DNA of 64,000 bases from Sulfuricurvum sp. (GTDB taxonomy: Bacteria > Campylobacterota > Campylobacteria > Campylobacterales > Sulfurimonadaceae): contig JAUYSQ010000068.1 of assembly GCA_030696285.1 (NCBI GenBank), forward strand, positions 2,231-66,230, in the 5' to 3' direction. The notes beneath the pieces were generated by a model. It had not been told where the DNA came from, did not search any database, and worked only from the letters and a program-made list of their open reading frames with translations. The position numbers and the translations under genes are program-made. Each line of letters begins with the position of its first letter. The stretch's first letter is position 1. Positions 7,854 through 59,737 of the stretch are shown one piece after another.

Positions 7854-7928
7854 TTCTGCCTCAAAGAGGCAAGCTTTAGTGCCATAGCGGCAAGCGTAGC
7901 CAAAGGGATTTTATTCCTTTGGCGTTCT
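7854..7928. repeat. Two-hairpin repeat, family B, copy 1 (at the hydC stop)
   Basis: Shares the core gcaagctttagtgccWtagcggcaagcgtagc and its flanking hairpins with 59297-59370. Confidence 0.9.
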
Positions 7929-8634: not shown

Positions 8635-8643
8635 ATTACCTCC

Positions 8644-23601: not shown

Positions 23602-25146
23602 TTAACGAATAAGGTCGAAGAAATAGTCGGTCGTTGCGATACCTTTGGTATCTTCATCCAACTGGTCAAGAACTTTGTTCGTGATCCACGTCAAAAGATT
23701 CAACGCACCGTCGTATCCGCTGATAGAGTAACGGTGAAGGTGATGACGGTCGAAAATCGGGAATCCGATGTAGATCAACGGAGTTCCTGTATCACGCATC
23801 AACTCTTTACCGTAGCTGTTACCGATCATGAAATCGACAGGCTCAGTAAACAAGAGTGAACGCATAGCCCATAAGTCTTTTCCAGCCCATACATTCAAAC
23901 TGTCTTTTGCAGGAGAGGTATCAAGCATTGCTCTCATCTCTGCTTCCCAGCCGTTTGGTGCATTATGGCAAAGGACGTGAGTAGGCTCAGCACCCATCTC
24001 TAACAAGAATGATACTGCTCCGATTAGGAAGTCAGGATCGCCCCAGATAGCGAATTTTTTACCGTGCATATACGGATAGCTGTCTTGCATCGCATCAACC
24101 AAACGGCCGCGCTCGATTTTGAGTTTTTGTGGAACTTCTGTCCCTGTCAACTCTGCAAGTTTCATAACGAACTCATCTGTCCCTTTGAGACCGACTGGGT
24201 TAGAGAATCCACCTGCGTGTTTCCAACGTTTTTCGACCATTTTCATGGTTTTAACGGTAGCGTATTTTTGCAATGAGATCGTTGCACTTGAGTTGATACA
24301 ATCTTTTGCATCATCGATTTTTGTTCCGCCTTGGAACATTTCGTATTGACCCGCTGGCATATCCCATTGATCAGAGTGGTCACCCAACATGATATAGTCT
24401 GTGCCGAACGCTTCTACGATAGTTTTTACCGAACGAAGACTTCCAATATACGTTTCAAAACCAGGGATGATGTTGATACGTTGTTTCGTTTCGCCTTTGT
24501 TTCCTTCCGTAAGCTGTGACATGATACCGTGCATCATATTGTCATATCCAGTGATATGGCTACCTACGAATGAAGGTGTATGAGCGTATGGAATCGGATA
24601 ATCAGCTGCCAAATATTCTCCGCCGTCTTCTTCTTTTGCCGCGATGATAAATGCCATCAAGTCGTCCCCGATAACTTCCGCCATACAGGTAGTAGAAACG
24701 GCGATCATTTTAGGTTTATACACTGCTGCACAGTTTTTAAGACCCTCTTTCATATTTACCAAACCACCAAATACCGCAGCATCTTCGGTCATAGAATCCG
24801 ATACACAAGGAGTCGGCTCTTTGAAGTGACGGGTAAAATACGAACGGAAATACGCAACACAACCGTGTGAACCGTGAACGTAAGGCATTGTACCCTCAAA
24901 TCCGAGTGCAACCATAACAGCCCCAAGAGGCTGACATGCTTTTGCAGGATTAACGGTGATTGCTTCACGAGCGAGGTTTTTCTCACGGTAATCCCATGAT
25001 TTTGTCCACTCTGCGATCTCATCTACTTTTGCAGGGTTAACCGCAAGCATAGAAGATTCGAATTGCTTTTTGTTTTTGAGCACCTCTTGGTACTCAGGGC
25101 GTTTAAACAGGTCTTTCCCGTTTACAATTTTTTCTACTTCTTGCAT
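23602..25146 (-). CDS. nifK: Nitrogenase MoFe protein beta chain
   Basis: NPAKACQPLGA, HGSHGCVAYFR, TTCMAEVIGDD, GFPIFDRHHLHR. Confidence 0.98.
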   Translation of the reverse strand: MQEVEKIVNGKDLFKRPEYQEVLKNKKQFESSMLAVNPAKVDEIAEWTKSWDYREKNLAREAITVNPAKACQPLGAVMVALGFEGTMPYVHGSHGCVAYFRSYFTRHFKEPTPCVSDSMTEDAAVFGGLVNMKEGLKNCAAVYKPKMIAVSTTCMAEVIGDDLMAFIIAAKEEDGGEYLAADYPIPYAHTPSFVGSHITGYDNMMHGIMSQLTEGNKGETKQRINIIPGFETYIGSLRSVKTIVEAFGTDYIMLGDHSDQWDMPAGQYEMFQGGTKIDDAKDCINSSATISLQKYATVKTMKMVEKRWKHAGGFSNPVGLKGTDEFVMKLAELTGTEVPQKLKIERGRLVDAMQDSYPYMHGKKFAIWGDPDFLIGAVSFLLEMGAEPTHVLCHNAPNGWEAEMRAMLDTSPAKDSLNVWAGKDLWAMRSLLFTEPVDFMIGNSYGKELMRDTGTPLIYIGFPIFDRHHLHRYSISGYDGALNLLTWITNKVLDQLDEDTKGIATTDYFFDLIR

Positions 25147-25150
25147 GACC

Positions 25151-26617
25151 TCAACCTTCCTTTTCCCATGGTGCTTTTGAGTGCGCCCATACTGGTGAAT
25201 TAATCGCTAAATCCATATCTGACGCGAAGATAGCAAATCCGTCGTACCCGTGGTACGGTCCGCTGTAATCCCATGAGTGCATCTGACGATATGGAAGACC
25301 CATTTTTTGGAATACATACTTCTCTTTGATCCCTGAAGCTACAAGGTCTGGTTGAAGTTTTTTAACAAATGCTTCAAGCTCATACTCGTTGACGTCATCG
25401 TAGATAACAGTTGAACGGAATATCTCTTCTTTAGTACGTTTGTAGTCATCATCATGAGCAAACTCATAACCTGTACCGATTACTTCCATACCCAAATCTT
25501 CATAAGCTCCGATAACGTGACGAGGACGAAGACCGCCGACGAACAACATAACCGTTTTACCTTCAAGACGAGGTTTATATTTCGCGATAACTGCATCGAT
25601 CATCGGTTGGTACTTCGCGATAACTTCTTCACATTTAGCTTGTACGCTTTCGTCAAAGAACGCCGCAATTTTACGGAGTGATTTGATGGTTTGAGAAGGC
25701 CCGAAGAAGTTGTACTCGATCCAAGGAATCCCATACTCTTTTTCCATATGACGGCTGATGTAGTTCATTGAACGGTAGCAGTGAAGCAGGTTCAATTTTA
25801 CTTTTGGTGTCAATGCCATCTCTTTAAGCGTTGCATCGCCTGACCATTGTGCTACAACACGAAGACCCATCTCTTCAAGAAGAATACGGCTTGACCATGC
25901 GTCACCGCCGATGTTATAGTCTCCGATGATCGCAACGTCATAATCGGTTGCTGTTACATCGCTGGTATCGATATTTACTTTACCGTCAAAGATAAAGTCA
26001 CGAACCGTGTCGTTTGCAATGTGGTGACCCAGTGATTGAGAAACCCCACGGAAACCTTCACAGTTAACCGGAACGATAACTTTGTCGATCTCTTTTGCTT
26101 TTACACGTGATACCGCACCGATATCATCCCCGATCAAACCGATCGGACACTCGGATTGAACCGTGATACCGTTATTGAGTGGGAAAAGTTCTTCGATTTC
26201 ATCGATACATTTACCCAATTTTTTGTCTCCGCCGAAAACGATGTTGTTCTCTTGGAAATCCGAGCTAAAGTTCATCGTTACAAACGTATCAACACCGGTT
26301 ACACCGATATAATAGTTACGGCGACCTGCACGGCTGTATTGACCGCATCCGATAGGTCCGTGACTGATGTGGATCATGTCTTTGACAGGACCCCATACAA
26401 CCCCTTTTGACCCTGCATAAGCACAACCGCGTTGGCTCATAACACCTGGAACGGTTTTTTTGTTTGAACGGACATCACCGCACGTTTTTTGATTTTCATC
26501 ATTTGGCGATCCGACACCGAGGTGTTTTTCACGGTTTTTCGCCGCTTTCTCCGGATACGCTTTTAAGATCTCTTCAATGGCCGCTTTTTGTTTAGCTTCT
26601 AGTGTTTCTGGTCCCAT
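25151..26617 (-). CDS. nifD: Nitrogenase MoFe protein alpha chain
   Basis: [40 protein letters not shown] (alpha-Cys275), [14 protein letters not shown] (alpha-His442); Mo-type signatures. Confidence 0.98.
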
Positions 26618-26631
26618 AATACACCTCTTCC

Positions 26632-26991
26632 TTACGCGACTTCGATGCGAAATTGTTCCATCGAATCTAAGTTATGACACAATTTCATTGTCTCATCATC
26701 TGCTGCATCAACACGTTTTGAGATTTCTGACATTTGGTAACGATTCATGTAAATCATGTACTTTTGAGTTTTTTCAGGATTCTCTTCTTTGAAATAATGG
26801 ACCATTGCACGGAACAAGAAAGTATCTTTATTCGTGTAGCTCAACCACTCTTTATCTCTCTCTTTAGTACCCATCAAAAGTTTGATCTCTTTAACGTCAC
26901 TGATATCAACATCGGCAATTTTTTCTGCAACTAATTCGTCTGGAATGTGATTCCCCATTGAAGCTGGGAAGTGAAAACCTAATACAAACAT
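26632..26991 (-). CDS. Unknown 119-aa protein between nifH and nifD
   Basis: Strong RBS (AAGGAG), same strand, ends 14 nt before the nifD start; no family recognised. Confidence 0.8.
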
Positions 26992-27170: not shown

Positions 27171-28094
<924 letters not shown>

Positions 28095-28120: not shown

Positions 28121-28135
28121 TGCAAGGGGTGTTCT
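28121..28135 (-). promoter_or_regulatory. -24/-12-like nif motif AGAAC-N5-TTGCA upstream of nifH
   Basis: Minus strand tAGAACaccccTTGCAt, 35 nt before the ATG; recurs before other nif genes. Confidence 0.7.
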
Positions 28136-28360
28136 ATGGTTTTTTGGACATTTTTCAAAACAACCGTTACAAAGGTACGACAATGAAACAAAATTGTAGG
28201 AATAGGTATTGCAGGGGTAGACAACAATCAATTAGTAACATTTTAGGAGGCACATGGATCGTTACATGCCACTTGTATCCGTATATATAAGTAGATTAAT
28301 GATAAAATTACATAATTAATATTTATCAGTTAGAAATTTTTGCTAAAGGGAAAGTAAACG

Positions 28361-31812: not shown

Positions 31813-32637
31813 CAGTGAAAATGCGTAAATATTATTAAATTTAACACTATGCACTTCTCCGTAAAACATGTGTAAAAACGTCCCTTTTTGTTGAAAGTGA
31901 TATTTTTCATACAGATCCACTGCTTTGGTATTTCCCATCGGAACATCGGCGAGCACTTTCTTCAATCCTCGAAAATACAGAACTCCCTGCATCATTTTTT
32001 CCGCTTCCTCGTCAAACCCCTCACGGCATTGCCACGGACCAAGATACACTCCGCGTGCATTGATAACACTGGAGTGTTGGAACGAGTTTGGGAGGGCGAA
32101 TTTCAGCGAACTGTTGCGCTCCATCTCATCGAGTATAAATCCCATACGATCTTCCCCGAATGTCTCAAAATCAAGCTTACGAATCATCGCATCGAAGTTT
32201 CCGCCATCGAGCTCTTTTGCCTGTGCATTGGTAAAACTAAACGGGGGAACTTTTCCGACATTAAGATATCGCCCTACTTCCATGACCGATTTAAAACCGC
32301 TTTGCTCAAAAAAATCTTCGAGTTGAGGATTGGCGTGCAAATAAAGAGAAGGGTGCTCCTCTTTTAAAACACCAAAAAGGGTATTAAATAGCCGCCGTCC
32401 GATCCCCTGCTTTTGATGCGTCGGTTTGACCATAAAATATTTAATCATCGCCGAGGATTCAAACTCGATTGCCATCACTGCACCGACAAGTACCCCTTCA
32501 TCGTAGGCACCGTAGCACAGATGCGGTGCGTGCATCATCATGAGTTTTACATGGTATCCATCGAGTAACCAACCGGTCTCTTCGGAAATTTTAATCAGAT
32601 CCGGAACATCGACAAACTTTAGCCACCCTATATACAT
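31810..32637 (-). CDS. GNAT-family acetyltransferase (double-GNAT length)
   Basis: FMVKPTHQKQGIGRRL; second domain N..AVDLYEKYHF; start overlaps the nifV stop. Confidence 0.8.
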   Translation of the reverse strand: MYIGWLKFVDVPDLIKISEETGWLLDGYHVKLMMMHAPHLCYGAYDEGVLVGAVMAIEFESSAMIKYFMVKPTHQKQGIGRRLFNTLFGVLKEEHPSLYLHANPQLEDFFEQSGFKSVMEVGRYLNVGKVPPFSFTNAQAKELDGGNFDAMIRKLDFETFGEDRMGFILDEMERNSSLKFALPNSFQHSSVINARGVYLGPWQCREGFDEEAEKMMQGVLYFRGLKKVLADVPMGNTKAVDLYEKYHFQQKGTFLHMFYGEVHSVKFNNIYAFSL

Positions 32638-33743
32638 GCCGCGTCCTGATAGAGAGATTTAAGTTCGAACACATCCAGCACCCGTTTACGTGAGGTTACA
32701 ATTTCTCGGATTTTTGGAAGAAGATCGCTTAAGATACTGTTATCCGCACTGATACCCATCCGTTTTAGATGGTAGCGTATTGTTGCACTTCCAGAGTGTT
32801 TGCCGATAGGATACGAACTTTCTAATCCCACTTCACTCGCTTCATACGGTTCATATGCGCTTGAGTCTTTCATCATACCGCTTGCGTGAATGCCGCTCTC
32901 GTGGGCGAAAATATGTTCCCCCACGACAGGAGCATTGGATGCGAGTGTCATATTGGCTGCACTCGCGACTGTTCCCACTAAATTTCGAATCAGGAGAGGA
33001 TCGATAAGGCGTGCCTCACCGTAGAGATGTTTCAATGCCATGAGAATCTGTTCAAATGAAGCATTGCCCGCCCTCTCACCTAACCCCATTACGGTCGTGT
33101 TCATACTGATGGCCCCTGCATCAATTCCGCTGAGGGCATTGGCGTTGGCAAGTCCAAAATCGTTGTGAGTGTGCATTTCAATCGGGAGGAGATTTAGATC
33201 ACATAACGACTTGACTGCTTTGTACGTTTGTGTTGGAGTCATAATGCCGATCGTATCGCAATAGCGAAAACGATGCGCTCCGCATTCACGTGAGAGTTCC
33301 ATCACATCACGGATAAATTCATGAGAGCCTCGTGAACTGTCTTCACCGCCGATACAGACAAACAGTCCTTCGCGAGTGGCAGCAGAAACCACACGTTCGA
33401 GTTCACTTAATACTTTTATTTTACTTCCGCCGAATTTGACATCAATCAAAATATCGGAAATAGGAATCGATAAGTCAACCGCTTTGACACCGCACGAAAG
33501 CGATGCATCAAGGTCTTCCATTTTCATCCGATTCCACGTCATCATTCGAGCGCGTAATCCTAGAGAAAGAAGGGTTTTTATATCCTCACGCTCTTTGACA
33601 CCCATTGCTGCAATACCAATTTCGAGTTCATCCGCTCCGCACGCATCCAACAGCGTTGCGATACGGATTTTTTCGTCGGTATTGAACGCGACGTAAGCGG
33701 CTTGCTCGCCGTCACGCAATGTTGTGTCATTTATGAGTGCCAT
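32628..33743 (-). CDS. nifV: Homocitrate synthase
   Basis: INDTTLRDGEQ, HTHNDFG.A.AN, GLGERAGNA, HESGIH, IGKHSG. True start MALIND at 33743; the upstream extension in the ORF track comes from a repeat. Confidence 0.93.
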   Translation of the reverse strand: MALINDTTLRDGEQAAYVAFNTDEKIRIATLLDACGADELEIGIAAMGVKEREDIKTLLSLGLRARMMTWNRMKMEDLDASLSCGVKAVDLSIPISDILIDVKFGGSKIKVLSELERVVSAATREGLFVCIGGEDSSRGSHEFIRDVMELSRECGAHRFRYCDTIGIMTPTQTYKAVKSLCDLNLLPIEMHTHNDFGLANANALSGIDAGAISMNTTVMGLGERAGNASFEQILMALKHLYGEARLIDPLLIRNLVGTVASAANMTLASNAPVVGEHIFAHESGIHASGMMKDSSAYEPYEASEVGLESSYPIGKHSGSATIRYHLKRMGISADNSILSDLLPKIREIVTSRKRVLDVFELKSLYQDAACI

Positions 33744-33758
33744 AATAGGTTCCTTCCC

Positions 33759-33831
33759 GTCATCCTCGGGCTTGACCCGGGGATCCATCTTCATTAATGC
33801 ATAACTGGATTCCCGCCTTCGCGGGAATGAC
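33759..33831. repeat. REP-like doublet, family C, between nifB and nifV
   Basis: gtcatcctcgggcttgacccggggatcca...tggattcccgccttcgcgggaatgac. Confidence 0.9.
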
Positions 33832-33837
33832 GATGTA

Positions 33838-35253
33838 TTAGTTCACTTCCGCGTTTTCATCCACACCGAAATATTTACGAGATGCTTTGAGTACCGAAAT
33901 CTCGATAGGCTCATAGGCATAGCTTTGATCCGCAACGATACCTGCAGCTTTAAGATCGTCTTGAGGGCATCCGCCGATTTTTGCGGTAAGGACCATTTGC
34001 ACGTCTTTGAGTTTTTCCAAAATTGGAGCCAGTGGATTCGTCCCATCAGGACCTGCACAATATTCTGCATCCACTTTACGGTGATGGATAAATCGAATCC
34101 CTTTGTCTCCTGCTTCATAAATCAAGAACTCTTTAACACTACCAAAGTGCATGTTAATCATCCCCTCACCCGCAGTCGTAACCGCAACGAGGATCGTCAC
34201 ACCGTTGGAGCTAAGTTCTTCTTTCTCTTTTCGGACACGGTCGTTTGCACGGTCGAGGAAGAAACGGAACTCTTCAATTTTCGCTTGTGCTTCTTGGCGT
34301 GCTTCGAGATCGTATTTGATTTGGAGTTCATCGAAACTAAGCCCTGAGAAGGTGTCTTTGGTAAACTCTCCGCCACGGTCTTCACCGATAAGCCCTACCG
34401 CATCGGCACGACACTGACGGCAATGCTGCATCAACTTCATATCATGTCCGCACGCTTCTTGCGCTGCCATTTGCTCTTGATCGGTAGCACTGGGTACTCC
34501 ATCGAGGGCAAATTTGGTTCCGAACTCCGGCTCAGAGAGAATCGGCATAATGTTGTGCAAGAAGACACCGATCTCTTTGAGCTTTCGTGAAACTTCCGGT
34601 AAATGTTGGTCATTGATACCCGGAATTAGTACCGAGTTGGCTTTAATCAAAATCCCTTTTTCAACACATTTACGCATCCCTTCTAGCTGATTTGCCAAAA
34701 GGATCTTTGATGCCTCTTTCCCATAGATACGTTTATTGTCATGGAAAATCCACGGATAAATCAGACTTCCAATCTCACCCGTCTCATCGACGCTGTTAAT
34801 CGTAACGGTAATGTGATCGATATTGTATTCGACCATCTCATCAACAAAATTAGGCAATTCCAAACCGTTCGTAGAGAGACACAATTTTAAATCTGGTGCA
34901 AATTCGCGCACCATTCCAAATGTCTCAAACGTCTTTTTAGGATTAGCAAGAGCATCGCCGGGACCCGCGATCCCAAGAACACTCATACGTTGAACTTCTC
35001 CGCCAACGAACATAACTTTCTTCGCAGCTTCCACAGGTGAAAGGCGTTCTGACGTAACACCTGGGCGTGACTCGTTTGAACAGTCGTATTTACGGTTACA
35101 GTAATTGCATTGGATATTACACGCAGGGGCAACCGCAACGTGAATACGGGCATAGTGGTGGTGAGCACCTTCTGAATAGCATGGATGATTGTGGATCTTT
35201 TCCTTAATATCATCGGGCATAAAAGCTTCAGTTCCAGTTGATGAACAGCTCAT
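33838..35253 (-). CDS. nifB: FeMo-cofactor biosynthesis radical SAM protein NifB (with C-terminal NifX-like domain)
   Basis: HPCYS, RIHVAVAPACNIQCNYCNRKYDC, ESRPG, AGPGDALAN, HCRQCRADA, INMHFG. Confidence 0.98.
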   Translation of the reverse strand: MSCSSTGTEAFMPDDIKEKIHNHPCYSEGAHHHYARIHVAVAPACNIQCNYCNRKYDCSNESRPGVTSERLSPVEAAKKVMFVGGEVQRMSVLGIAGPGDALANPKKTFETFGMVREFAPDLKLCLSTNGLELPNFVDEMVEYNIDHITVTINSVDETGEIGSLIYPWIFHDNKRIYGKEASKILLANQLEGMRKCVEKGILIKANSVLIPGINDQHLPEVSRKLKEIGVFLHNIMPILSEPEFGTKFALDGVPSATDQEQMAAQEACGHDMKLMQHCRQCRADAVGLIGEDRGGEFTKDTFSGLSFDELQIKYDLEARQEAQAKIEEFRFFLDRANDRVRKEKEELSSNGVTILVAVTTAGEGMINMHFGSVKEFLIYEAGDKGIRFIHHRKVDAEYCAGPDGTNPLAPILEKLKDVQMVLTAKIGGCPQDDLKAAGIVADQSYAYEPIEISVLKASRKYFGVDENAEVN

Positions 35254-35326: not shown

Positions 35327-35341
35327 TGCAAATAGCGTTCT
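35327..35341 (-). promoter_or_regulatory. nif motif AGAAC-N5-TTGCA upstream of nifB
   Basis: Minus strand AGAACgctatTTGCAt. Confidence 0.7.
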
Positions 35342-35381
35342 TATCGATTACGAAGCAATCGTGGTTCAATCGTGACAATTT

Positions 35382-35397
35382 TGTATTTAGGGGAACA
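35382..35397. promoter_or_regulatory. Possible NifA-type upstream activator site TGT-N10-ACA
   Basis: TGT atttagggga ACA lies between the two divergent nif motifs; a short motif like this can arise by chance. Confidence 0.4.
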
Positions 35398-35440: not shown

Positions 35441-35455
35441 AGAACAAGAGTTGCA
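35441..35455 (+). promoter_or_regulatory. nif motif AGAAC-N5-TTGCA upstream of the 35484 gene and ech operon
   Basis: AGAACaagagTTGCA, 28 nt before the ATG at 35484. Confidence 0.7.
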
Positions 35456-35483
35456 ATAGTTAGGTCAATACAAGGAGTCTCTG

Positions 35484-35927
35484 ATGATCGTTGCCATACC
35501 GATAGATGCATTCAAACGTGTCTACCACTACAATCCATGTAGCGCAACGATGTTCGCACTGTATGAGCTAAGCGGAGATCGCAAAGATATTCGCTATCGA
35601 CATTTGGAATCCAAACTCAATCCATGGAAAAAATGTGAAGGGGAGATGGTGTGTGATCCGAAGATGAAAGAGAGTAACTGTGACAGTGACAAAAGTCGCG
35701 ATCCTCATCACATCAGTGAACATTACGCACTGCTAGAAGTCATTGGTAAATGCGACTATCTTATCACGGGTCAATATTGTCTCAATACTTTTTATGCGAT
35801 GCGCAATGTCGGAATCAAAATCCATAAAATTCCTCCCTTTATGAAAACGACACACGAAGCGATGAACCACTTTATCATCGGTGCCGAGATCACCGACAAC
35901 CTCCAATACATCCACCCGGCATCGTAA
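35484..35927 (+). CDS. NifB/NifX-fold (FeMo-cofactor-binding-like) protein with a Cys-rich insert
   Basis: MIVAIP...ATMFALYEL...IGKCDYLITGQY..NTFYAMRNVGIKI matches the NifX-fold layout. Confidence 0.55.
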   Translation: MIVAIPIDAFKRVYHYNPCSATMFALYELSGDRKDIRYRHLESKLNPWKKCEGEMVCDPKMKESNCDSDKSRDPHHISEHYALLEVIGKCDYLITGQYCLNTFYAMRNVGIKIHKIPPFMKTTHEAMNHFIIGAEITDNLQYIHPAS

Positions 35928-35985
35928 TACAAAAGCTGCTTTTTTTCGCTACAATCTATCCAACTTTGTAAAAAAGAGCAAAATT

Positions 35986-37824
35986 ATGCAAGAGCTTCTA
36001 CTTATTCTCTTCCTGCTCCCTTTTTTTGCCGCCGTCGGCGTACTTAGCGTTAAACGGTACGCTGGGATCATTACCTTTTTTACTGCCACTTTTTTGATGG
36101 CCGCATCCTCGCTTGCTTACCTCTCTTTCGAATCCAGTTTTACCCTCTCACTTTCCTATCTAAGCGTCCCGTTTTTGGTAACGGACCTAGTTCTTTTGGG
36201 ATATTTCGCCACTATAGGCTATACGAGCCGAAACAAAAAAATTCTTTTTCTGAGTATCGTACAGGCGGCTTTTTTGTTTCTCCTTGAAAACTTTTCCTCA
36301 CGAGAAGGCTACGACATCGTCGTTGATAAACTCTCCCTATTTATGTTTTTGCTCATCAATATCGTAGGTTCCCTCATCCTCATCTACGCCGTCCGCTACA
36401 TCAAAGACGAAACCTCAGATATCTCCAAGCAAGCGGTCTTTCTCGCTATACTCACAGCCTTCCTCGGCGTCATGAACCTGCTTGTATCGGTCGATAATAT
36501 TGAATGGCTCTTTTTATTTTTCGAAATGACGACACTTGCCAGTTTTTGGCTTATCGGCTTTAGGGACGATGCCGAGTCTCAGGAAAATGCCCGTATTGCC
36601 CTTTGGATGAACCAAATCGGCGGTGTAGCTCTTCTAGCAGCCGCACTTGTCGCAAAAGCAGAGCTTCACACCGTCTATATCTCCGAGATTTTAACGCACG
36701 GGGGAGAGACTCTGATACTTTTCACAGCGTTTTTTGCCGTCGCCGCCCTCATCAAGGGGGCGCAAATGCCGTTTTCGCCGTGGCTTCTTGGGGCAATGGC
36801 GGCACCCACCCCCGTCAGTGCGATACTCCACTCTTCCACTATGGTAAAAATCGCCCCCTACTTTATCTTGAAAATCTCTCCGGCACTTGCAGGGACAGCC
36901 GTAGGAGGGGTTATCGCCCTTATCGGAGCCATCTCCTTTCTCGTATCGGCCGCCCTTGCCCTGAGGGAAGAGAACTTTAAAAAAATCCTCGCCTATTCAA
37001 CTATTTCACTGCTGGGGCTTATGATACTTACTGCATCGCTGGGTACACCGCTGAGTGTCCTTGCTTGTATGCTTCTCATCCTCTTTCACGGTGTATCCAA
37101 AGCGATGCTCTTTATGTGCGCAGGGGTTTTGGAGAAGAAATACCATATCAAAAGTATCGAATCAGTGGAGGGGCTGATCAACAAGGCTCCAATCCTAACG
37201 TCACTTATCATTCTGGGATTTTTAAGTATTTCCCTCCCCCCTTTCGGTGTTTTTTTCGCCAAATGGATTGTATACGAAGGGGGTGCCGGTATTAGCGGTC
37301 TTATAGTGACGCTCCTGCTCTTTTTTATCGCGGTCGGAAGTGTCGCATTGACCCTTCTGTATTTTAAAACCGTCGGCAGATTCGTCGCAAACGACGATAC
37401 AAAAAGTTCAAAGGAAGATTATTCGTATCTGGCTTCCCCTCTTATCCTCGGAATGTTTCTCCTCGGGTTTAGTTTTTTTATCTCCCCTGCAATTGGAGGA
37501 TTTTTTAAAGAGAACGCCTCATTTGTCGTCTCGTCCGTCGTACCGATCAGCGGCGATTTTTGGGGGATTACCCTCCCTTTCGGAAGACTCGAATTTTGGC
37601 ATATTGTGGCCGCATTTTTGCTCCTGGGCGTCGCACCGCTCCTTGCGGCAAAAATACGGCTAAAAGGGATAGACAAGGTCAAACCGTACTCCTGCGGCGA
37701 GAAAATAGAGACAAGCGCCTACTCTTTCTACTTTGACCCCGCAAAAAATATTGAAAAAGTCGCCAATACTGTCTCCGCCGCCCTTTTTCTCCTTATTATC
37801 CTACTGGGAGCGTTAAATCTATGA
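35986..37824 (+). CDS. echA: Ech-type hydrogenase antiporter-like membrane subunit (EchA; NuoL/MrpA-like)
   Basis: Polytopic; FFEMTTLASFWLIG, IKGAQMPFSPWL.GAMAAPTPVSAILHSSTMVK, ILAYSTIS. Confidence 0.85.
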   Translation: MQELLLILFLLPFFAAVGVLSVKRYAGIITFFTATFLMAASSLAYLSFESSFTLSLSYLSVPFLVTDLVLLGYFATIGYTSRNKKILFLSIVQAAFLFLLENFSSREGYDIVVDKLSLFMFLLINIVGSLILIYAVRYIKDETSDISKQAVFLAILTAFLGVMNLLVSVDNIEWLFLFFEMTTLASFWLIGFRDDAESQENARIALWMNQIGGVALLAAALVAKAELHTVYISEILTHGGETLILFTAFFAVAALIKGAQMPFSPWLLGAMAAPTPVSAILHSSTMVKIAPYFILKISPALAGTAVGGVIALIGAISFLVSAALALREENFKKILAYSTISLLGLMILTASLGTPLSVLACMLLILFHGVSKAMLFMCAGVLEKKYHIKSIESVEGLINKAPILTSLIILGFLSISLPPFGVFFAKWIVYEGGAGISGLIVTLLLFFIAVGSVALTLLYFKTVGRFVANDDTKSSKEDYSYLASPLILGMFLLGFSFFISPAIGGFFKENASFVVSSVVPISGDFWGITLPFGRLEFWHIVAAFLLLGVAPLLAAKIRLKGIDKVKPYSCGEKIETSAYSFYFDPAKNIEKVANTVSAALFLLIILLGALNL

Positions 37825-38642
37825 GCTGGCTTCTTACCCTTTTGGCCCCGATCTTGGGGGGATTCCTGTACGGCATTGAGCGAAAACTAACGGCTCGGAT
37901 GCAGTCGCGCAAAGGGCCCCCAATCCTGCAGCCGTTCTTTGATCTTTTTAAGCTGGCCGACAAACGGCCGATGGTAGTGCACTCCTACCACGCGTTTATG
38001 GGTATTATCCACTTTGTAGCAGCCTGGGTGGCTCTCTCCGTCTTGTTTTTCGGCGGAGACCTATTGGTAGCAATCTTTTTTCATCTCCTCTCCACCTCCC
38101 TTCTTATCGTTGCGGGATACTCGGTAAAATCGACCTACAGCCGCCTCGGCGCGACACGAGAACTGATCGCGATCGCCGCATTGGAGCCGATACTGATACT
38201 GACCGCCATTTCTTTTTACCTCCATACGGGAAGTTTTGAGGTTTCGAAGATACTAACTGCCCCCACTTCGATTTTCACTTCTGTTTTAGGATTTTTAGCG
38301 CTTCTCATTGCCCTGCCTGGACTTCTCAAAAAATCTCCGTTTGACGCGGCTGAAGCACATCAGGAGATCGTCGGCGGAGTCGAGATAGAGTTTTCGGGAT
38401 TTTTTTACGATACGGTGTATGCGGCCAAATGGCTTGATATGCTCTTCGTCTTTACCCTCGTATTTTTGTTCGGCGGAAGCAGTTTTGTCGTGGGGGGAGC
38501 ACTGGCCGTATTCGCCTTTTTCGTCGTCCTCCTTGCGGATAATTCGACTGCGAGGGTGCGCTACTGTGACATGGTTCGTCTCCTCTACTCGCTCGCTTTC
38601 GTCCTCGCAGGTGCAAATATCATTTTGGGGGTAGTCTTATGA
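37821..38642 (+). CDS. echB: Ech-type hydrogenase membrane subunit (EchB; NuoH-like)
   Basis: ERKLTARMQSRKGPPILQPFFDLFKL, KSPFDAAEAHQEIVGG..IEFSG. Confidence 0.88.
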   Translation: MSWLLTLLAPILGGFLYGIERKLTARMQSRKGPPILQPFFDLFKLADKRPMVVHSYHAFMGIIHFVAAWVALSVLFFGGDLLVAIFFHLLSTSLLIVAGYSVKSTYSRLGATRELIAIAALEPILILTAISFYLHTGSFEVSKILTAPTSIFTSVLGFLALLIALPGLLKKSPFDAAEAHQEIVGGVEIEFSGFFYDTVYAAKWLDMLFVFTLVFLFGGSSFVVGGALAVFAFFVVLLADNSTARVRYCDMVRLLYSLAFVLAGANIILGVVL

Positions 38643-39157
38643 TACAAGAGTTCTTAAAAAAATTCCGCAAAAAATCGCCGTGGCTGCTTCACTACAATGC
38701 CGGCAGCTGCAACGGCTGCGACATCGAAATTTTGGCCTGCCTCGCTCCAAAATACGATCTTGAGCGACTCGGGGTCAGAAATACGGGTAATCCGAAACAA
38801 TCCGATATTTTCCTCGTCACCGGACCCGTAACGATGAGAAGCCGAGAGAGGCTAGTGGAGCTCTACACACAGATGCCTGAGCCAAAAGTCGTGGTAGCGT
38901 GCGGCTCCTGCACCTGCACCGGCGGTGTATTTCGGGGAATGTACAACGCCGAAGACGGAATCGACCGCTATATCCCCGTAGATGTCTACATCGGCGGATG
39001 TGCCCCGCACCCTGAGCAGATTATTGACGGAATAGTCAAAGCATTGGAGATACTGGAAACAAAAACAAAAGAGATCGAACAACCCAAAAAGCTCATGGGG
39101 AAAATAACCGAAAACGACGGGCAAACCGATAAAACGAAGATGGCAGGGTCACTATGA
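38639..39157 (+). CDS. echC: Ech-type hydrogenase small subunit (EchC; NuoB-like)
   Basis: GSCNGCDIE, GSCTCTGG, YIGGCAPHPE. Confidence 0.9.
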   Translation: MIQEFLKKFRKKSPWLLHYNAGSCNGCDIEILACLAPKYDLERLGVRNTGNPKQSDIFLVTGPVTMRSRERLVELYTQMPEPKVVVACGSCTCTGGVFRGMYNAEDGIDRYIPVDVYIGGCAPHPEQIIDGIVKALEILETKTKEIEQPKKLMGKITENDGQTDKTKMAGSL

Positions 39158-39501
39158 AAACGACAAAAGAGCTGGTAACGCTGCACGAGATCAGAGGCGC
39201 CATCGAGGGATTTTATGACCCGCAAATATGGCATTTTGTCTGTATCAACGGACTTTTTGAGAATGACGAGTTAGAAATCCAATGGTGTTTCGCCAAGATC
39301 GGCGTAAAAGACGAATGGAAAGTCTTTTACGCCAAAGCCCCCGGTGATGCGCTCCTCCCCAGCCTTGCCGACATCATGCCGACCGCGCGGATGTACGAGG
39401 GGGAACTGCGTGATCTACTGGACGCGAATTTTGAAAACTCGGTCAAAGGGATGTTTATCGAGCTTGACGGCCTTGAAGCTCCGCTAAGGATCAAACGATG
39501 A
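39154..39501 (+). CDS. echD: Ech-type hydrogenase subunit D (NuoC-like)
   Basis: LPSLADIMPTARMYEGELRDLLDANF, a NuoC-like motif; ATGA overlaps on both sides. Confidence 0.8.
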   Translation: MKTTKELVTLHEIRGAIEGFYDPQIWHFVCINGLFENDELEIQWCFAKIGVKDEWKVFYAKAPGDALLPSLADIMPTARMYEGELRDLLDANFENSVKGMFIELDGLEAPLRIKR

Positions 39502-40583
39502 AAAAAACGATACACATACCGATTGGGAGCCAGCATATTTCTCTATTAGAGCCGGTTCGCTTTAGCTTCGAGTGCGAAAACGAAACGATTATAAAGGTGG
39601 AAGCGGATGTCGGATACGTCCACCGAGGAGTAGAACTTGCCTGTACGACGAAGTTTAAATTCAAGCAGGTCGGCTATGTCGTCGCACGGGTCTGCGGCCT
39701 GTGCGCAATCGTACACTCCACCTGCTACACCCTCGGAATCGAAGAGCTCATGGGGATAGAGGTACCCAAACGGGCCTCCTATCTTCGCCTGATTGCAAAC
39801 GAACTCGACCGTATCCATTCCCATCTCCTTTGCCTCTCCCACACCGCTGAAAATGCAGGTTATGAAGCTCTTTTTATGCGCATTATGAAAGACAGAGAGC
39901 TTGTCATGGAGGTGCAGGAAGCGATGACGGGCAACCGCATCCAATTCGACTATGTCTCCATCGGCGGCGTCAACAAAGATATGAACTCCGAGTTGGAAGG
40001 AGTTATCCGGAACAAACTGGGGCTTTTACACCAAAAAGTAGCTGAGATCAAAGAGCTCTTCGACAACAACTGGAGCCTCTCCCTCAAATACAAAAACGTC
40101 GGCGTCATAACCAAAGAGATGGCCTACCGATCTTCCCTTCTAGGCCCTATTGCCAGAGCCAGCGGGGTAAATTTTGACGTCCGAAACGACAGTGACTACC
40201 TCCCCTACTCGGAACTCGGATTTAAAAGCATAACGATGGAAGGGGGTGACATACACTCCCGGAATATGGTGCGTCTATTTGAACTATTTGAAAGCATCCG
40301 ACTCATTGAAACGGCGCTTGATGGGATGCCAGAGGGGGAAATCGCCGCAAAAGTACGGGGAACGCCGGAGGGGGAGAGCTACATGAGGGTCGAGGCACCC
40401 AGAGGGGAATGCTTTTACTATCTCAAAGCCTCCAAAGGGCAGTATCTCGACAGAGTCCGTATCAAAACCCCGACCTTCGGTTCGGTACCCGGCATGATCG
40501 AGGCGCTCAAGGGGTCGAACTACGCCGACGTTCCCGCCATCATCGCCTCGTTCGACCCCTGTCTATCCTGTACGGCGAGGTAA
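39498..40583 (+). CDS. echE: Ech-type (group 4) [NiFe]-hydrogenase large subunit
   Basis: GYVHRGVE, L1 RVCGLC, L2 DPCLSCTAR ending at the stop; Ni-binding cysteines are intact, so this is not NuoD. Confidence 0.93.
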   Translation: MKKTIHIPIGSQHISLLEPVRFSFECENETIIKVEADVGYVHRGVELACTTKFKFKQVGYVVARVCGLCAIVHSTCYTLGIEELMGIEVPKRASYLRLIANELDRIHSHLLCLSHTAENAGYEALFMRIMKDRELVMEVQEAMTGNRIQFDYVSIGGVNKDMNSELEGVIRNKLGLLHQKVAEIKELFDNNWSLSLKYKNVGVITKEMAYRSSLLGPIARASGVNFDVRNDSDYLPYSELGFKSITMEGGDIHSRNMVRLFELFESIRLIETALDGMPEGEIAAKVRGTPEGESYMRVEAPRGECFYYLKASKGQYLDRVRIKTPTFGSVPGMIEALKGSNYADVPAIIASFDPCLSCTAR

Positions 40584-40586
40584 AAA

Positions 40587-41009
40587 ATGTTAAAAGCAGC
40601 CTTTAACGCCCTGAAAAACCTCTTCAGCACCCCCGCCACGATCGATTACCCCTTCGAAAAATCGCCCAAGAACAAAGAGGCGAGAGGGCTGATCCTCTTT
40701 GAAGAACCCAAATGCATCTGGTGCCTGAAATGCGAGGATGTCTGCCCTCCCGGTGCAATACGGTTTACACAAGACAGAGAGAGTTTCGATTATACGTATC
40801 ACTACAACCCCTACCTCTGCATCTATTGCTCCGAATGCGTCAGAGCATGTCCTGACTCAGCTGTAGCCCTCAGCCAGTGCAATGAACTATCCCCCCCAAC
40901 GGATGATAAAAATATGAATGACAACTGGTTTAAGATAGAAAAAGAGGCTGAAGAGTCCAAAATAGCGGTAAAAGAGCTCAAAAAAATAAAAAAAGAGGAA
41001 AGTTCCTAA
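40587..41009 (+). CDS. echF: Ech-type hydrogenase 2x[4Fe-4S] subunit (EchF; NuoI-like)
   Basis: CIWCLKCEDVCP and CIYCSECVRACP. Confidence 0.9.
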   Translation: MLKAAFNALKNLFSTPATIDYPFEKSPKNKEARGLILFEEPKCIWCLKCEDVCPPGAIRFTQDRESFDYTYHYNPYLCIYCSECVRACPDSAVALSQCNELSPPTDDKNMNDNWFKIEKEAEESKIAVKELKKIKKEESS

Positions 41010-41088
41010 AATTTTACATTTTTGTCTCTCCCTTCTCGCATGGCCTCATAATCCGACAAATAAGACTAAATCCCTCCCATTTACTTCA

Positions 41089-41103
41089 AGAACGCTAAAT
41101 GCA
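41089..41103 (+). promoter_or_regulatory. nif motif variant AGAAC-N5-ATGCA
   Basis: AGAACgctaaATGCA, 34 nt before the TTG start at 41138. Confidence 0.55.
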
Positions 41104-41137: not shown

Positions 41138-41653
41138 TTGCAGATAATCTACAATACATCCACGCTGTATCTTGAAGATATGCCGCTCGATGTCGGTTAT
41201 GCCTCTGAAAAGGTGACACTCAAAAATCACTCCAATGAGACTTTTAGTATCGGCGGTCAAAACGGCTTTACACAGCTCATACTTTCGGCTCCTTTTATTA
41301 ATAATGAGTTTCTCACCCAACTCGAAGAGATTGATACCTTGCTAAGCCTCAATGCATTGCAAGGTATCAGTAAAGCCCTTGTCGTTGCCAGTGCTCAACA
41401 CACCAATCCCCAGATGGAGGGATGGCAGTTTGGAATCGATACCGACGAGGCTTTCGGAGATTACTACGGTACGCGCATTGCCAAAGGAGAACTGGGAGGA
41501 GAGTTTGCCAAAGGACTCTTCATCGTTTCAAAAGACGGCGCACTGTTTTACAATGAAATACTGGATGATCTAAATAAGCCTTATTCACTCGAAAAAGCAC
41601 TACCAAAAATCGCTGCGGCGATGAACTGTTATACCGGAAAAGGATGCCACTAA
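41138..41653 (+). CDS. Thiol-peroxidase (Tpx)-fold protein lacking the peroxidatic Cys
   Basis: C-terminal half FGDYYG..I..G.LGG..AKGLFIVSKDG..FY.EI resembles Tpx; start TTG 41138 after AAGGAG. Confidence 0.6.
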   Translation: MQIIYNTSTLYLEDMPLDVGYASEKVTLKNHSNETFSIGGQNGFTQLILSAPFINNEFLTQLEEIDTLLSLNALQGISKALVVASAQHTNPQMEGWQFGIDTDEAFGDYYGTRIAKGELGGEFAKGLFIVSKDGALFYNEILDDLNKPYSLEKALPKIAAAMNCYTGKGCH

Positions 41654-42483
41654 TGGACACAAAAATCGAAACAATCAAAAAAGAATTACGCAATCAAACC
41701 ACTATCCCCTACTTCGGATTGGGTGTATTTGAGGGGATCATGACAAAAGAGGGTGAGGCAGTGCCTCATAACAGTGATTCTCTGATTTTGGCGATGAATG
41801 GCGGTCGTGCTATGGCACCCCGACTTATGTTTGAATACTCACGTGCCGCGATGCATCTCGAACAACGCCGAGGTGTAGAGTACATGACACAGCTCCTCAA
41901 CCATATTTATACCAAACCATTCGAGCCGACACCGTTGCACAAAGCGATTATTGACATGTTGCCTCGCTACATCGTTGATACGAACCGTGACACGAAGTTT
42001 CAAGAACTTTTGGCATTTACGCCGCACTGTCTTATCATCGGTAAATCACGCATCATGGGTGATCTCAACCGCTATGAAACGTACGAATACGATGTCGAAA
42101 ACCAAAAGTATTTTCTCGTAGACGATGAGGTGCTGGATAATGCCAAAAAAATCCTCTTTAAACCGATGGGCTCACCATTACCCAATCCGACCTTTGTTAT
42201 TTCCGATGCCGATTACGTCGATTGGCTTACCGAAGCCATGGGAGGATTTGCCGTGCCAAAAGTGCTAAAAACCTACCGTAAAGCGAAAAAATACCTCTTT
42301 TTAGGGACATCCTTCGGTCACGATACCGATCGTATGGTTGCCAACGAGTTGAGCTTTGATTTGGAGGGGGGATACGTCATCACCGATCAAGAGCTGGGGA
42401 AAAAAGAGAAAAAGTTCATCGAAAAACACAATATTGAAGTGATACCGATGTCGCTTCAAGAATTTATTCAAGCATTTGTATAA
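41653..42483 (+). CDS. SIR2-like domain protein (nif-associated type)
   Basis: IPYFGLGV, IVDTN.D, LFKPMGS, FVISDADY, YLFLG.SF; TAATG coupling to the upstream gene. Confidence 0.7.
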   Translation: MDTKIETIKKELRNQTTIPYFGLGVFEGIMTKEGEAVPHNSDSLILAMNGGRAMAPRLMFEYSRAAMHLEQRRGVEYMTQLLNHIYTKPFEPTPLHKAIIDMLPRYIVDTNRDTKFQELLAFTPHCLIIGKSRIMGDLNRYETYEYDVENQKYFLVDDEVLDNAKKILFKPMGSPLPNPTFVISDADYVDWLTEAMGGFAVPKVLKTYRKAKKYLFLGTSFGHDTDRMVANELSFDLEGGYVITDQELGKKEKKFIEKHNIEVIPMSLQEFIQAFV

Positions 42484-42495
42484 AAGGAACTAGTC

Positions 42496-43088
42496 ATGCC
42501 AATAATACCAACTGTTAAAGATGTTTCGCCTCGCGGGGAGCGTTATTTTGATCTGTTTTCCAAACTTTTAGGCGATCGTGTCATCGTGATTACTGAAGCG
42601 ATTGATGATCACATGATGGGGATTATCGTCTCTCAGCTGCTGTATCTAGAAGCGATGGATTCCGAAGAGCCGATTCATATTTACATCAGCTCACCGGGGG
42701 GTTCGGTCATGAGCGGTTTAGCCATATTAGATACTATGAATCTCATCAATGCACCGGTTCATACCTATGCTATGGGGATGGTCGCATCGATGGCAGCCGT
42801 GCTGTTTACCTGCGGAGAAAAAGGGCATCGTTACATGCTCCCCAATGCGGAAGTGATGATTCATCAACCGCTGGGCGGCTACTCAGGTCAGGCAAGTGAC
42901 ATCGAGATTCATACAAAACATATCCTCAATCTCAAACGCCGTTTGTATGCCATCCTCGCCGATGCAACCGGTAAAAGTGCCAAAATTATTGAAAAAGAGT
43001 CCGACCGTGACAACTACATGGAAGCCAAAGAAGCGATCGAGTTTGGTTTGGCGGATACGATTTTGACTAAATTCAGTGCAAAGGATGT

Positions 43089-43092
<4 letters not shown>
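42496..43092 (+). CDS. clpP: ATP-dependent Clp protease proteolytic subunit
   Basis: YISSPGGSV..GLAI, ASM (Ser), IHQPLGG (His), DRD (Asp). Confidence 0.95.
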
Positions 43093-45496
<2,404 letters not shown>

Positions 45497-45554: not shown

Positions 45555-46436
45555 ATGAGTCTATCGCAAAATGACGTTTTGTTTATAAATGAAGATAATG
45601 TATGCAGCAAGCTTTTCCAGTCAGCCATTGATACGCAAAATAATTTAATTGTTTTACTGCACCGTAATGTCCCTATTCTTTTCAATAAAGCTTTCCAAAA
45701 TTTCACTAACCTTCCCACCGTCAAAGAGTTTCTCCGTGAATTCGGCTCGCTTTCGAACCGTTTTGTTCCCCATGATGCCTATTTTCATGCTGGAAAAGCT
45801 GAAAATCCGAACGAGTGGACAACTGCACTTGAGGCTCTGCCCGAGTCAGACCGAATCGTTAGTATGATTAATTTCCGTGCCGAACCGTATGCCTTCTCTG
45901 TTACTATCGACACACCTGTAGAGGAGTATACCATTGTCTCATTTACCGATATCTCTCAAGATCTTATCAAGAGGATCATGATCGAAAATGATGTGAGTAT
46001 TGACAAAGAGAGCGGTGCTTACAATCAAGATTATTTTATTCATACGGCAAAAAGCTTTCAAAATGCGGCAGAATTCAATGAAAAAGCGATCGGAATTACA
46101 GTGATCGAACTGATGTCCTCTGATGTTGATGCGGATAAATACCTACGTGACTTTACCTCAAGTATCAAATGTAACATCCGCCAAAGCGATATGCTCGTTC
46201 GCTGGGGGAAAAAGATTTTTTTATTGGCGTATCTCATTGATACCCCAGATAATGCCATGAAATTCAGCCGAAAACTCATGACCGTTATGAAAGAAGAGCC
46301 TTTTGAGAGTCTAAATACGATCAGTATGCGTCTAGGATCAACCGTTCAAAACCATAAAGAAACTATCACGACTATCATTACGCGTGCAGAAACCGCTCTG
46401 AAACAATCCGACAGCTCGCAGATAACCCTGCTCTAG
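45555..46436 (+). CDS. PAS-like plus degenerate GGDEF domain protein
   Basis: GAYNQDYF, IRQSDMLVRWGKKIFLL, in which GGDEF is replaced by GKKIF. Confidence 0.6.
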   Translation: MSLSQNDVLFINEDNVCSKLFQSAIDTQNNLIVLLHRNVPILFNKAFQNFTNLPTVKEFLREFGSLSNRFVPHDAYFHAGKAENPNEWTTALEALPESDRIVSMINFRAEPYAFSVTIDTPVEEYTIVSFTDISQDLIKRIMIENDVSIDKESGAYNQDYFIHTAKSFQNAAEFNEKAIGITVIELMSSDVDADKYLRDFTSSIKCNIRQSDMLVRWGKKIFLLAYLIDTPDNAMKFSRKLMTVMKEEPFESLNTISMRLGSTVQNHKETITTIITRAETALKQSDSSQITLL

Positions 46437-59370: not shown

Positions 59371-59737
59371 CCTTAGATGTGTGGACAATGCGCAGTAACC
59401 ACGGCGGCGGATTGCCCAATAATAACTCTTGAAGTTTTTTGATTGCTTCATTAATGAGTTCATTCTCAGCCGAACGCATCGGATAAATCTTGGAAGCCAA
59501 CACCATCTTCGACGCCGTCGGACCGATTTGGGAGCAAAACATAATGTCTGCTTCTTTTACCGTCCCGATTTTGTACGCCAGTTTTTCGTGTTCGTCTTCG
59601 ATCGCGTCTTGGGAGCTGTCGAGTGTTTTGATAAACTGGGCACTTTGTTCCGTGACACGATACAGCTCAAAACTCTTCGACCACCCAAAATGTTGATTGA
59701 CAGAAATTCCATCCGATGAAGCGAACGCGATTAACAT
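59357..59737 (-). CDS. NifX/NifY-family FeMo-cofactor carrier-like protein
   Basis: IAFASSDG..VNQHFG.S..F..Y, DIMFCSQIGPTA..MV....IYP. Confidence 0.85.
   Translation of the reverse strand: MLIAFASSDGISVNQHFGWSKSFELYRVTEQSAQFIKTLDSSQDAIEDEHEKLAYKIGTVKEADIMFCSQIGPTASKMVLASKIYPMRSAENELINEAIKKLQELLLGNPPPWLLRIVHTSKENAI

Follow-up and report, generated by a model that had tools for sequence, protein, structure and literature searches.

The stretch of DNA analyzed here ("the window") comprises 64,000 nucleotides of contig JAUYSQ010000068.1 of Sulfuricurvum sp. (assembly GCA_030696285.1; contig C123 of genome G000 in our survey). The source is a 2.39 Mb metagenome-assembled genome (MAG) of 295 contigs, with an estimated completeness of 100% and an estimated contamination of 4.3%. 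The nitrogen fixation (nif) gene cluster of the window contains six genes, echABCDEF, which encode a complete, intact Ech-type group-4 [NiFe]-hydrogenase that may belong to subgroup 4e or to a neighboring subgroup. The genes are situated in a cassette of ~5.15 kb (~35928-41070) that is absent from the same site in the closest relatives, and its horizontal acquisition from another campylobacterial family is strongly supported. With a probability of about 0.6, we interpret the arrangement as an acquired Ech cassette that is expressed from its own promoter and by read-through from a nif promoter, links H2 to ferredoxin, and provides an accessory advantage to its host.

The Ech hydrogenase and its insertion site

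All six open reading frames (ORFs) have Pfam or NCBIfam matches to the corresponding subunits, and the set and order of the subunits are those of Ech-type hydrogenases. The genes are contiguous and translationally coupled, with 4-nt overlaps. Their coordinates and content, including the start of echA 58 nt after a NifX-like gene, are as given in the initial annotation of this DNA, which was made from the sequence alone. The large subunit EchE carries RVCGLCAIVH (residues 64-73) and a C-terminal DPCLSCTAR, fitting the patterns RxCGxCxxxH and DPCxxCxxR. The four NiFe-ligating cysteines contained in these motifs separate true hydrogenases from their complex I and Ehr-like relatives. EchC has the proximal-cluster motifs GSCNGC, CGSC and GGCAP, and EchF has two CxxCxxCxxxCP motifs, CIWCLKCEDVCP and CIYCSECVRACP. 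A search of the whole genome found this Ech to be its only group-4 hydrogenase, beside one NuoD. When compared with the orthologous operon of Sulfuricurvum sp. MLSB (genome G086), the ratio of nonsynonymous to synonymous substitution rates (dN/dS) is 0.07 for echE and 0.05 for echC, showing that the ech genes are under strong purifying selection. The enzyme looks functional and, judging by its sequence, would be ferredoxin-linked and ion-translocating.

In its six-subunit architecture, gene order and NiFe motifs, and in having a large subunit without a C-terminal extension, the enzyme resembles the Ech (EchABCDEF) of Methanosarcina barkeri and Desulfovibrio gigas. Like these, it would be expected to couple the interconversion of ferredoxin and H2 to ion translocation. 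Its homologs include six-gene Ech-type operons of Pseudodesulfovibrio and Thermoanaerobacterium. However, the EchE proteins of the nearest such operons outside Campylobacterota, found in Thermoanaerobacterium, Syntrophomonadaceae and Desulfovibrionaceae, are only 41-45% identical to that of the window, which falls into a Campylobacterota-specific clade. The closest solved structures to EchE are subunit L of the Pyrococcus furiosus membrane-bound hydrogenase, MBH (6cfw_L, E 2e-70), and HycE of the E. coli formate hydrogenlyase (7z0s_E, E 3e-59). Both complexes (6CFW and 7Z0S) combine a hydrogenase module with an antiporter-like membrane arm, as Ech does. MBH, however, has 14 subunits with an Mrp module and formate hydrogenlyase is linked to formate, whereas Ech represents the minimal six-subunit form.

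Three genomes (G117, G126 and G123), whose NifD and NifB are 98% identical to those of the window (RpoB is 97% identical in G126), share the gene order of the window between nifK and nifS, except that prx directly follows orf147 and ech is missing. Elsewhere, ech was found at the nif site only in Sulfuricurvum sp. MLSB (locus L002), the RpoB of which is 93% identical. The left and right junctions are homologous in the window and in this species, and the two therefore descend from one insertion event.

The orf147-prx junction of ech-less genomes has two forms. The genes either overlap (G123, G126, G139 and G118) or are separated, with prx having a nif promoter motif (described below) of its own (G108 and G097). 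The window and MLSB have the separated form, in which the cassette is located between the orf147 stop codon and the prx promoter. The nif motif of prx predates the insertion, because the ech-less G108 and G097 possess it. Over ~40 nt, the start of prx resembles the end of orf147, and this similarity was considered as a target duplication created by the insertion of ech. This was rejected, as the separated junction is already present in the same two ech-less genomes, and the duplication must therefore be older than the insertion.

Foreign origin of the cassette

A survey of 353 genomes of the family Sulfurimonadaceae found 92 with an Ech of this kind. The type present in the window occurs besides only in MLSB and in G145 (84% EchE identity), and the EchE proteins of the other 27 Sulfuricurvum genomes with Ech are mostly ~60-64% identical to that of the window. 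The same type is found in eight further species of another campylobacterial family, in which EchE is 82-87% identical. RpoB, found in four of these eight species, is only 69-73% identical to that of the window; by comparison, the RpoB of a Sulfurimonas, a member of the same family as Sulfuricurvum, is 82% identical. In the EchE tree, read without the mistranslated row L069_G342 (branch length 10), the sequences of the window's type group together with 99% support in the Shimodaira-Hasegawa-like approximate likelihood-ratio test (SH-aLRT), and their clade is sister to the family's own Ech clade. In the putative donor family, ech is embedded in a context of a two-component system, gltX, ech and gdhA that is conserved in five loci, which points to that family as the source. 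The horizontal acquisition of ech is thus strongly supported by the vacant site of the closest relatives, by the EchE tree set against RpoB identity, and by the conserved native context in the putative donor family. The initial annotation had proposed such an acquisition and had named EchE phylogeny as a check, with which the tree agrees.

The base composition is less informative. The GC content of ech is 49.2%, whereas the genome averages 42.7% and reaches such a value in only 0.13% of its 5-kb windows. At third codon positions (GC3), ech has 52-62% versus 40-49% in the flanking nif genes. The GC contrast that had been drawn from spot counts therefore has the right direction but was overstated, as hydB, the gene used for comparison, has 47.4% overall. 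However, ech operons are 1-7 GC points above their flanks in every lineage examined, so that composition was given little weight as evidence for transfer. Although ech is an outlier in this genome, composition was not accepted as proof.

Promoter-like elements and the relation of Ech to nitrogen fixation

A sequence AGAAC-N5-WTGCA, here called the nif motif, precedes nifH, nifB, orf147 and prx. The window has 6 occurrences of the pattern AGAAYNNNNNWTGCA, compared with 0.82 expected, and this number was reached in 0/100 shuffles. Relatives have conserved the copies upstream of nifH and orf147. The nif motif described in the initial annotation is therefore real. When the sequences preceding nifH and orf147 were aligned across four or five species, a conserved AGAAC-N5-TTGCA was found ~25-45 nt before the ribosome-binding sites. 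The spacing of the motif is that of a sigma54 -24/-12 promoter with AG replacing the GG that is nearly invariant in such promoters, and a scan for canonical sigma54 promoters, in which GG was required at -24, found none before nifH, nifB or orf147. The genome has two rpoN genes (on contig C164 and at C270:6158-7475) that are 41% identical to each other, and two enhancer-binding proteins. These sequences suggest that there may be a nif-dedicated sigma54 paralog with an altered -24 specificity. The rpoN gene on C270 adjoins a nifE/N-like gene and has TAGAAC-N5-ATGCA upstream. Sulfurimonas G163, too, has an rpoN linked to nif (L062:16119-17399), and GGAAC-N5-TTGCA sites occur on other contigs of the window's genome (C2, C5 and C78).

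The inverted-repeat element ACAATTTTGT is kept as exact copies in the nifH and nifB/orf147 intergenic regions of relatives and is a candidate activator site. The prx promoter was also considered as a copy of the nifB-orf147 intergenic region, but the score of the local alignment was no better than that of shuffles and the proposal was discarded.

A distance of 545 nt, which includes orf147, separates the nif motif of this gene from echA downstream. Neither a terminator-like site nor a stable structure was found between orf147 and echA, and transcription from the orf147 nif promoter should consequently run into ech. The earlier description of ech as lying downstream of a nif-type promoter is thus right by position, and ech is indeed followed by another operon with a nif motif, the prx-sir2-clpPX-nifS unit having its own. 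The 58-nt spacer between orf147 and echA lacks a nif motif and contains the -10-like GCTACAAT (35947-35954), in which TACAAT occupies positions 35949-35954. A T-run, GCTACAAT and the AAAAGAG ribosome-binding site align with the leaders of loci L005-L009 and L019 of the donor family and with that of G145, and their distance from echA is the same. Because the leader is conserved in both families, TACAAT is a conserved -10-like element of the native ech leader rather than a chance hexamer, and the caveat in the initial annotation that it could be an independent -10 was stronger than stated. In the donor family, echF is followed by a terminator hairpin, which the window lacks. In MLSB the leader has been trimmed to 20 nt, with TACAAT kept and the ribosome-binding site lost.

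In our interpretation, the cassette arrived from the campylobacterial family having the gltX-ech-gdhA context and landed in the short spacer that begins after the orf147 stop codon and ends before the nif-type promoter from which the prx-sir2-clpPX-nifS unit would be transcribed. This stretch of the nif cluster tolerates insertions, since the separated units each carry their own promoter. The cassette kept its leader and -10 and is now co-directional behind the orf147 nif promoter. Because its own -10 is kept and no terminator follows orf147, ech most likely has a basal expression from its own promoter that is raised by read-through under nitrogen-fixing conditions. The enzyme should interconvert H2 and reduced ferredoxin while spending or gaining membrane potential. 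The likely benefit would be the reduction of ferredoxin driven by H2, some of it evolved by nitrogenase, making Ech an accessory advantage that would be neither obligatory nor exclusive to nitrogenase. In this we infer the co-transcription of ech with orf147, the direction of catalysis, and the benefit to diazotrophy.

A hydrogen-driven electron supply for nitrogenase is plausible. Searches of the whole genome gave no RnfC match above the cutoff and no match for the electron-transfer flavoprotein (ETF), extending the earlier statement that the window contains neither rnf nor fixABCX, which holds. Ech would link H2 to ferredoxin in a host in which no further ferredoxin-reducing system for nitrogenase was recognized. 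The reverse tricarboxylic acid (TCA) cycle 2-oxoacid:ferredoxin oxidoreductases POR and OOR are present and are, together with nitrogenase, consumers of reduced ferredoxin. Within the 353 family genomes, 61 have both ech and nifD, 31 have ech only, 53 have nif only, and 208 have neither (odds ratio 7.7). Counted by genus, the corresponding numbers are 10, 5, 1 and 7 (p=0.027). Kinship is ignored in both counts.

A number of observations weigh against a close tie between this Ech and nitrogen fixation. The family and genus counts are uncorrected for phylogeny, and within Sulfuricurvum the association of ech with nifD is not significant (24/6/23/13, odds ratio 2.3, p=0.18). In 23 Sulfuricurvum species, the nearest relatives of the window included, nif is present without Ech, and the window's Ech type occurs without nifD in two (G355 and G357) of five genomes tested. 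Adjacency of ech and nif is restricted to 2 of the 61 family genomes that have both, namely that of the window and MLSB; elsewhere, when the two are on one contig, they are 24-615 kb apart. Among 49 Ech loci from species genomes, only that of MLSB has nif genes within 10 kb, and a conserved linkage of ech to nif across related diazotrophs was not found. Furthermore, the conserved native -10 could make the expression of ech independent of nitrogen status.

The insertion site itself adds to these points. Judging from 44 loci of the genus, insertions recur in the orf147-prx-sir2 stretch of Sulfuricurvum nif clusters, which is a hot spot for them: the interval between orf147 and sir279 is empty in 30 loci, contains 1.2-4 kb in 9, and contains >5 kb in 5. 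The cargo is unrelated to nif and includes an alpha-2-macroglobulin operon (G108 and G106), an HD-CE/HATPase protein (G118), CorA with MscS (G102), and ~19 kb with urea carboxylase and allophanate hydrolase (G097). Wherever cargo separates the units, the next nif unit (for example sir279) always has its own nif motif, so the insertions would be non-polar and easily tolerated. In G145 the same Ech type is found at a non-nif site and the nif site is empty, showing that the cassette has integrated at two or more sites within the genus.

The hot spot covers the prx-sir279 junction (window 41653-41644) as well as the orf147-prx spacer (loci L086, L087, L088, L089, L090 and L091). In G145 (L064, contig C18), ech is flanked by a Pyr_redox_2 gene and by GGDEF and SulP-cNMP homologs, of which the window has counterparts at 45555-46436 (GGDEF, 58% identity) and 56213-58408 (SulP-cNMP). 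Sulfurimonas G163, with ech and nif 24 kb apart, was considered as a second case of nif-ech linkage and rejected, as five unrelated genes separate nifN/nifX from ech. The ech operon of this genome, which is of the family type, lies ~3.3 kb from nifN/nifX and has a Na/Pi cotransporter gene inserted between echD and echE (L063:6991-8763).

The initial annotation had gone further and described Ech as the dedicated reductant supply and H2-recycling loop of nitrogenase. In its strict version, this would mean that Ech is expressed only from the orf147 nif promoter as a ferredoxin-reducing and H2-recycling system reserved for nitrogenase. The orientation of ech behind the nif motif with no intervening terminator, a genome without Rnf or Fix, the purifying selection on ech, and the co-occurrence of ech and nif in the family agree with such a role, and the trimmed leader of MLSB, having lost its ribosome-binding site, would make echA dependent on the upstream unit. 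Nevertheless, this version is doubtful: ech still has its conserved native leader and -10 in the window, the closest relatives possess this nif cluster but no Ech, genomes without nifD can carry the same Ech type, the site is a hot spot, and adjacency is limited to two species. Dedication to nitrogenase is thus partly supported and, as far as the sequences can tell, goes beyond the evidence. The co-occurrence of ech and nif, named as a check by the initial annotation, is borne out by the family and genus counts, but not within Sulfuricurvum or by adjacency. A less restrictive alternative is that Ech has been recruited into the nif regulon of a chemolithoautotroph without Rnf and Fix, is induced during N2 fixation by read-through from the sigma54-like orf147 promoter, and, acting as an H2:ferredoxin oxidoreductase driven by membrane potential, feeds nitrogenase directly, partly with the H2 that nitrogenase itself evolves. 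The native promoter, still present in the window and trimmed in MLSB, would then reflect an early stage of domestication. This alternative may be right, although we do not favor it.

At the other extreme, the cassette might be fortuitous cargo in a permissive spacer, transcribed from its own promoter and serving the general ferredoxin balance, as a supply for the reverse TCA cycle or as an H2-evolving redox valve, with no relation to nif. The variability of the orf147-sir279 interval, the unrelated cargo of other species, the non-polar nature of insertions upstream of units with their own nif motifs, the non-nif location in G145, the retained native promoter, and the 31 family genomes that have Ech without nifD would all be expected in this case. 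However, some nif-driven read-through would be hard to avoid when no terminator follows orf147, the native terminator hairpin after echF has been lost, strong purifying selection has maintained the arrangement in two species with an RpoB identity of 93%, and ech co-occurs with nif at both the family and the genus level. Cargo of no consequence for nif is therefore an unlikely explanation. Finally, a chimeric contig joining a foreign ech fragment to a Sulfuricurvum nif cluster might be suspected in a 295-contig MAG with 4.3% estimated contamination in which ech is compositionally distinct. An assembly artifact is nevertheless extremely improbable, as the independent assembly of MLSB has the same insertion with both junctions homologous, and both flanks are Sulfuricurvum nif genes of 86-98% identity.

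The acquired cassette with its own promoter and nif read-through, which we prefer, can be compared with other systems that link hydrogen or reductant to nitrogen fixation. Ech has been described in nif-bearing Sulfurimonadaceae (Sulfurimonas gotlandica, S. marisnigri and S. baltica), for which ferredoxin-linked H2 metabolism and internal H2 recycling have been suggested (PMC4584964, PMC12403661). The Ech of the window is of the same operon type as this family-type Ech, which likewise belongs to a family of chemolithoautotrophs and is often found in nif-bearing species. It differs in that it belongs to the sister clade (EchE identity 62-63%), comes from another family, and is located inside the nif cluster, whereas a distance of 24-615 kb separates the family-type Ech from nifD on contigs that have both. 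With Rnf and FixABCX it shares the proposed role, an energy-driven reduction of ferredoxin or flavodoxin that provides nitrogenase with low-potential electrons, and the location of the genes within or beside nif. The proteins are different, however, the donor would be H2 instead of NADH, and regulation with nif is established for Rnf and FixABCX and inferred for ech. The HupSL uptake hydrogenases of rhizobia and heterocystous cyanobacteria are similar in their nif-linked genes and in the idea of recapturing the H2 of nitrogenase, but these are group 1 or 2 enzymes that feed the respiratory chain and do not reduce ferredoxin. The literature searched did not describe any Ech operon located within a nif cluster.

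Many anaerobic or microaerobic chemolithoautotrophs, with Campylobacterota as a prominent example, have no Rnf, Fix or NifJ-type system to provide nitrogenase with low-potential electrons. In Campylobacterota, the reverse TCA cycle is a further process that requires reduced ferredoxin. The ech genes behind a nif promoter provide a concrete candidate route, from H2 via Ech and ferredoxin to NifH. The identical nif clusters of sister species with and without the cassette, together with a third species that has the cassette at a non-nif site, constitute a natural experiment. If ech has indeed been recruited to nif, it would add a third kind to the nif-linked reductant modules, of which Rnf and FixABCX are the other two. 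If its location is fortuitous, the window would still provide a well-documented transfer of a whole respiratory hydrogenase between families and an insertion-tolerant stretch of a nif cluster.

Table 1. Genes and sequence elements of the nif-ech region (window coordinates)
Feature	Position	Strand	Remarks
nifK	23602-25146	minus	
nifD	25151-26617	minus	
119-aa ORF	26632-26991	minus	between nifH and nifD; no Pfam match
nifH	27171-28085	minus	
nif motif AGAACACCCCTTGCA	28121-28135	minus	upstream of nifH; reference copy
nifV	32628-33794	minus	
nifB	33838-35253	minus	radical SAM and NifX-like C-terminal domain (Pfam Radical_SAM, Nitro_FeMo-Co); divergent from orf147
nif motif AGAACGCTATTTGCA	35327-35341	minus	upstream of nifB; conserved in G117, G126, G123 and G086
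inverted repeat ACAATTTTGT	35375-35384	plus	also in the nifH upstream region, 28188-28197
nif motif AGAACAAGAGTTGCA	35441-35455	plus	promoter-like, before orf147; start of the interval in the initial annotation
orf147	35484-35927	plus	NifX-fold (predicted)
native ech leader	35928-35985	plus	58-nt spacer; T-run, GCTACAAT, AAAAGAG ribosome-binding site
echA	35986-37824	plus	NuoL/Mrp-antiporter-like membrane subunit; Pfam Proton_antipo_M, Proton_antipo_N; ATG start backed by homologs
echB	37821-38642	plus	NuoH-like membrane subunit; Pfam NADHdh
echC	38639-39157	plus	NuoB-like small subunit; Pfam Oxidored_q6; proximal [4Fe-4S] cysteines
echD	39154-39501	plus	small NuoC-like subunit; Pfam Complex1_30kDa
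echE	39498-40583	plus	NuoD-like [NiFe] large subunit; no C-terminal extension
echF	40587-41009	plus	NuoI-like 2x[4Fe-4S] subunit
3' remainder of cassette	41010-41070	plus	after echF; right boundary ~41070, +/-15 nt
nif motif AGAACGCTAAATGCA	41089-41103	plus	before prx
nif-accessory unit	41138-45496	plus	prx/Tpx-like, SIR2_2-like, clpP, clpX, nifS; prx start is TTG at 41138

orf147 and neighboring genes

The product of orf147 has no Pfam match even at E<=5, PF02579 (Nitro_FeMo-Co) included, and a search of PDB sequences with a 24-sequence profile gave no match. It has 58 homologs, every named one of which is from Sulfuricurvum. The AlphaFold model has a predicted local distance difference test score (pLDDT) of 86.5 and a predicted template modeling score (pTM) of 0.81. 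The top Foldseek matches of this model are NifX (9ian_F), PH0822, TM1816, NafY and ORP, with probabilities of 0.98-1.0 and TM scores of 0.36-0.71 depending on chain and normalization (0.46-0.71 for the best chains). On the strength of this model, orf147 is predicted to encode a Sulfuricurvum-specific protein with a NifX-type fold, so that its earlier designation as a NifX-like gene holds at the fold level.

The orf147 protein has an insert of ~40 residues, and its invariant residues include C66, C99, H76, H80 and H129. Its identity within the genus is 50-92%, versus 82-98% for the neighboring NifB, ClpP and SIR2-like protein. The G126 copy is only 66% identical to that of the window despite an RpoB identity of 97%. 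Such divergence, which does not track RpoB, suggests allele exchange.

The window also contains hypF, a group-1 membrane-bound hydrogenase (7927-11660) and a second [NiFe]-hydrogenase of the cytoplasmic type (11809-13987), all upstream of the region described above. The 119-aa ORF between nifH and nifD keeps its position in Sulfuricurvum relatives (90-98% identity) and also in Sulfurimonas G163 (39%). A stretch of 91 codons at 59464-59737 on the minus strand, immediately upstream of a 193-aa ferredoxin ORF and missing from the ORF list, matches Nitro_FeMo-Co with an E value of 3.5e-13. It may be a NifX-like gene or part of a NifX-ferredoxin fusion whose start was miscalled in the simple ORF list. 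Within the nif-accessory unit, clpP and clpX (42496-44309) are situated before nifS, an arrangement kept genus-wide. The nif-linked clpX of Azotobacter vinelandii is a parallel to these copies.

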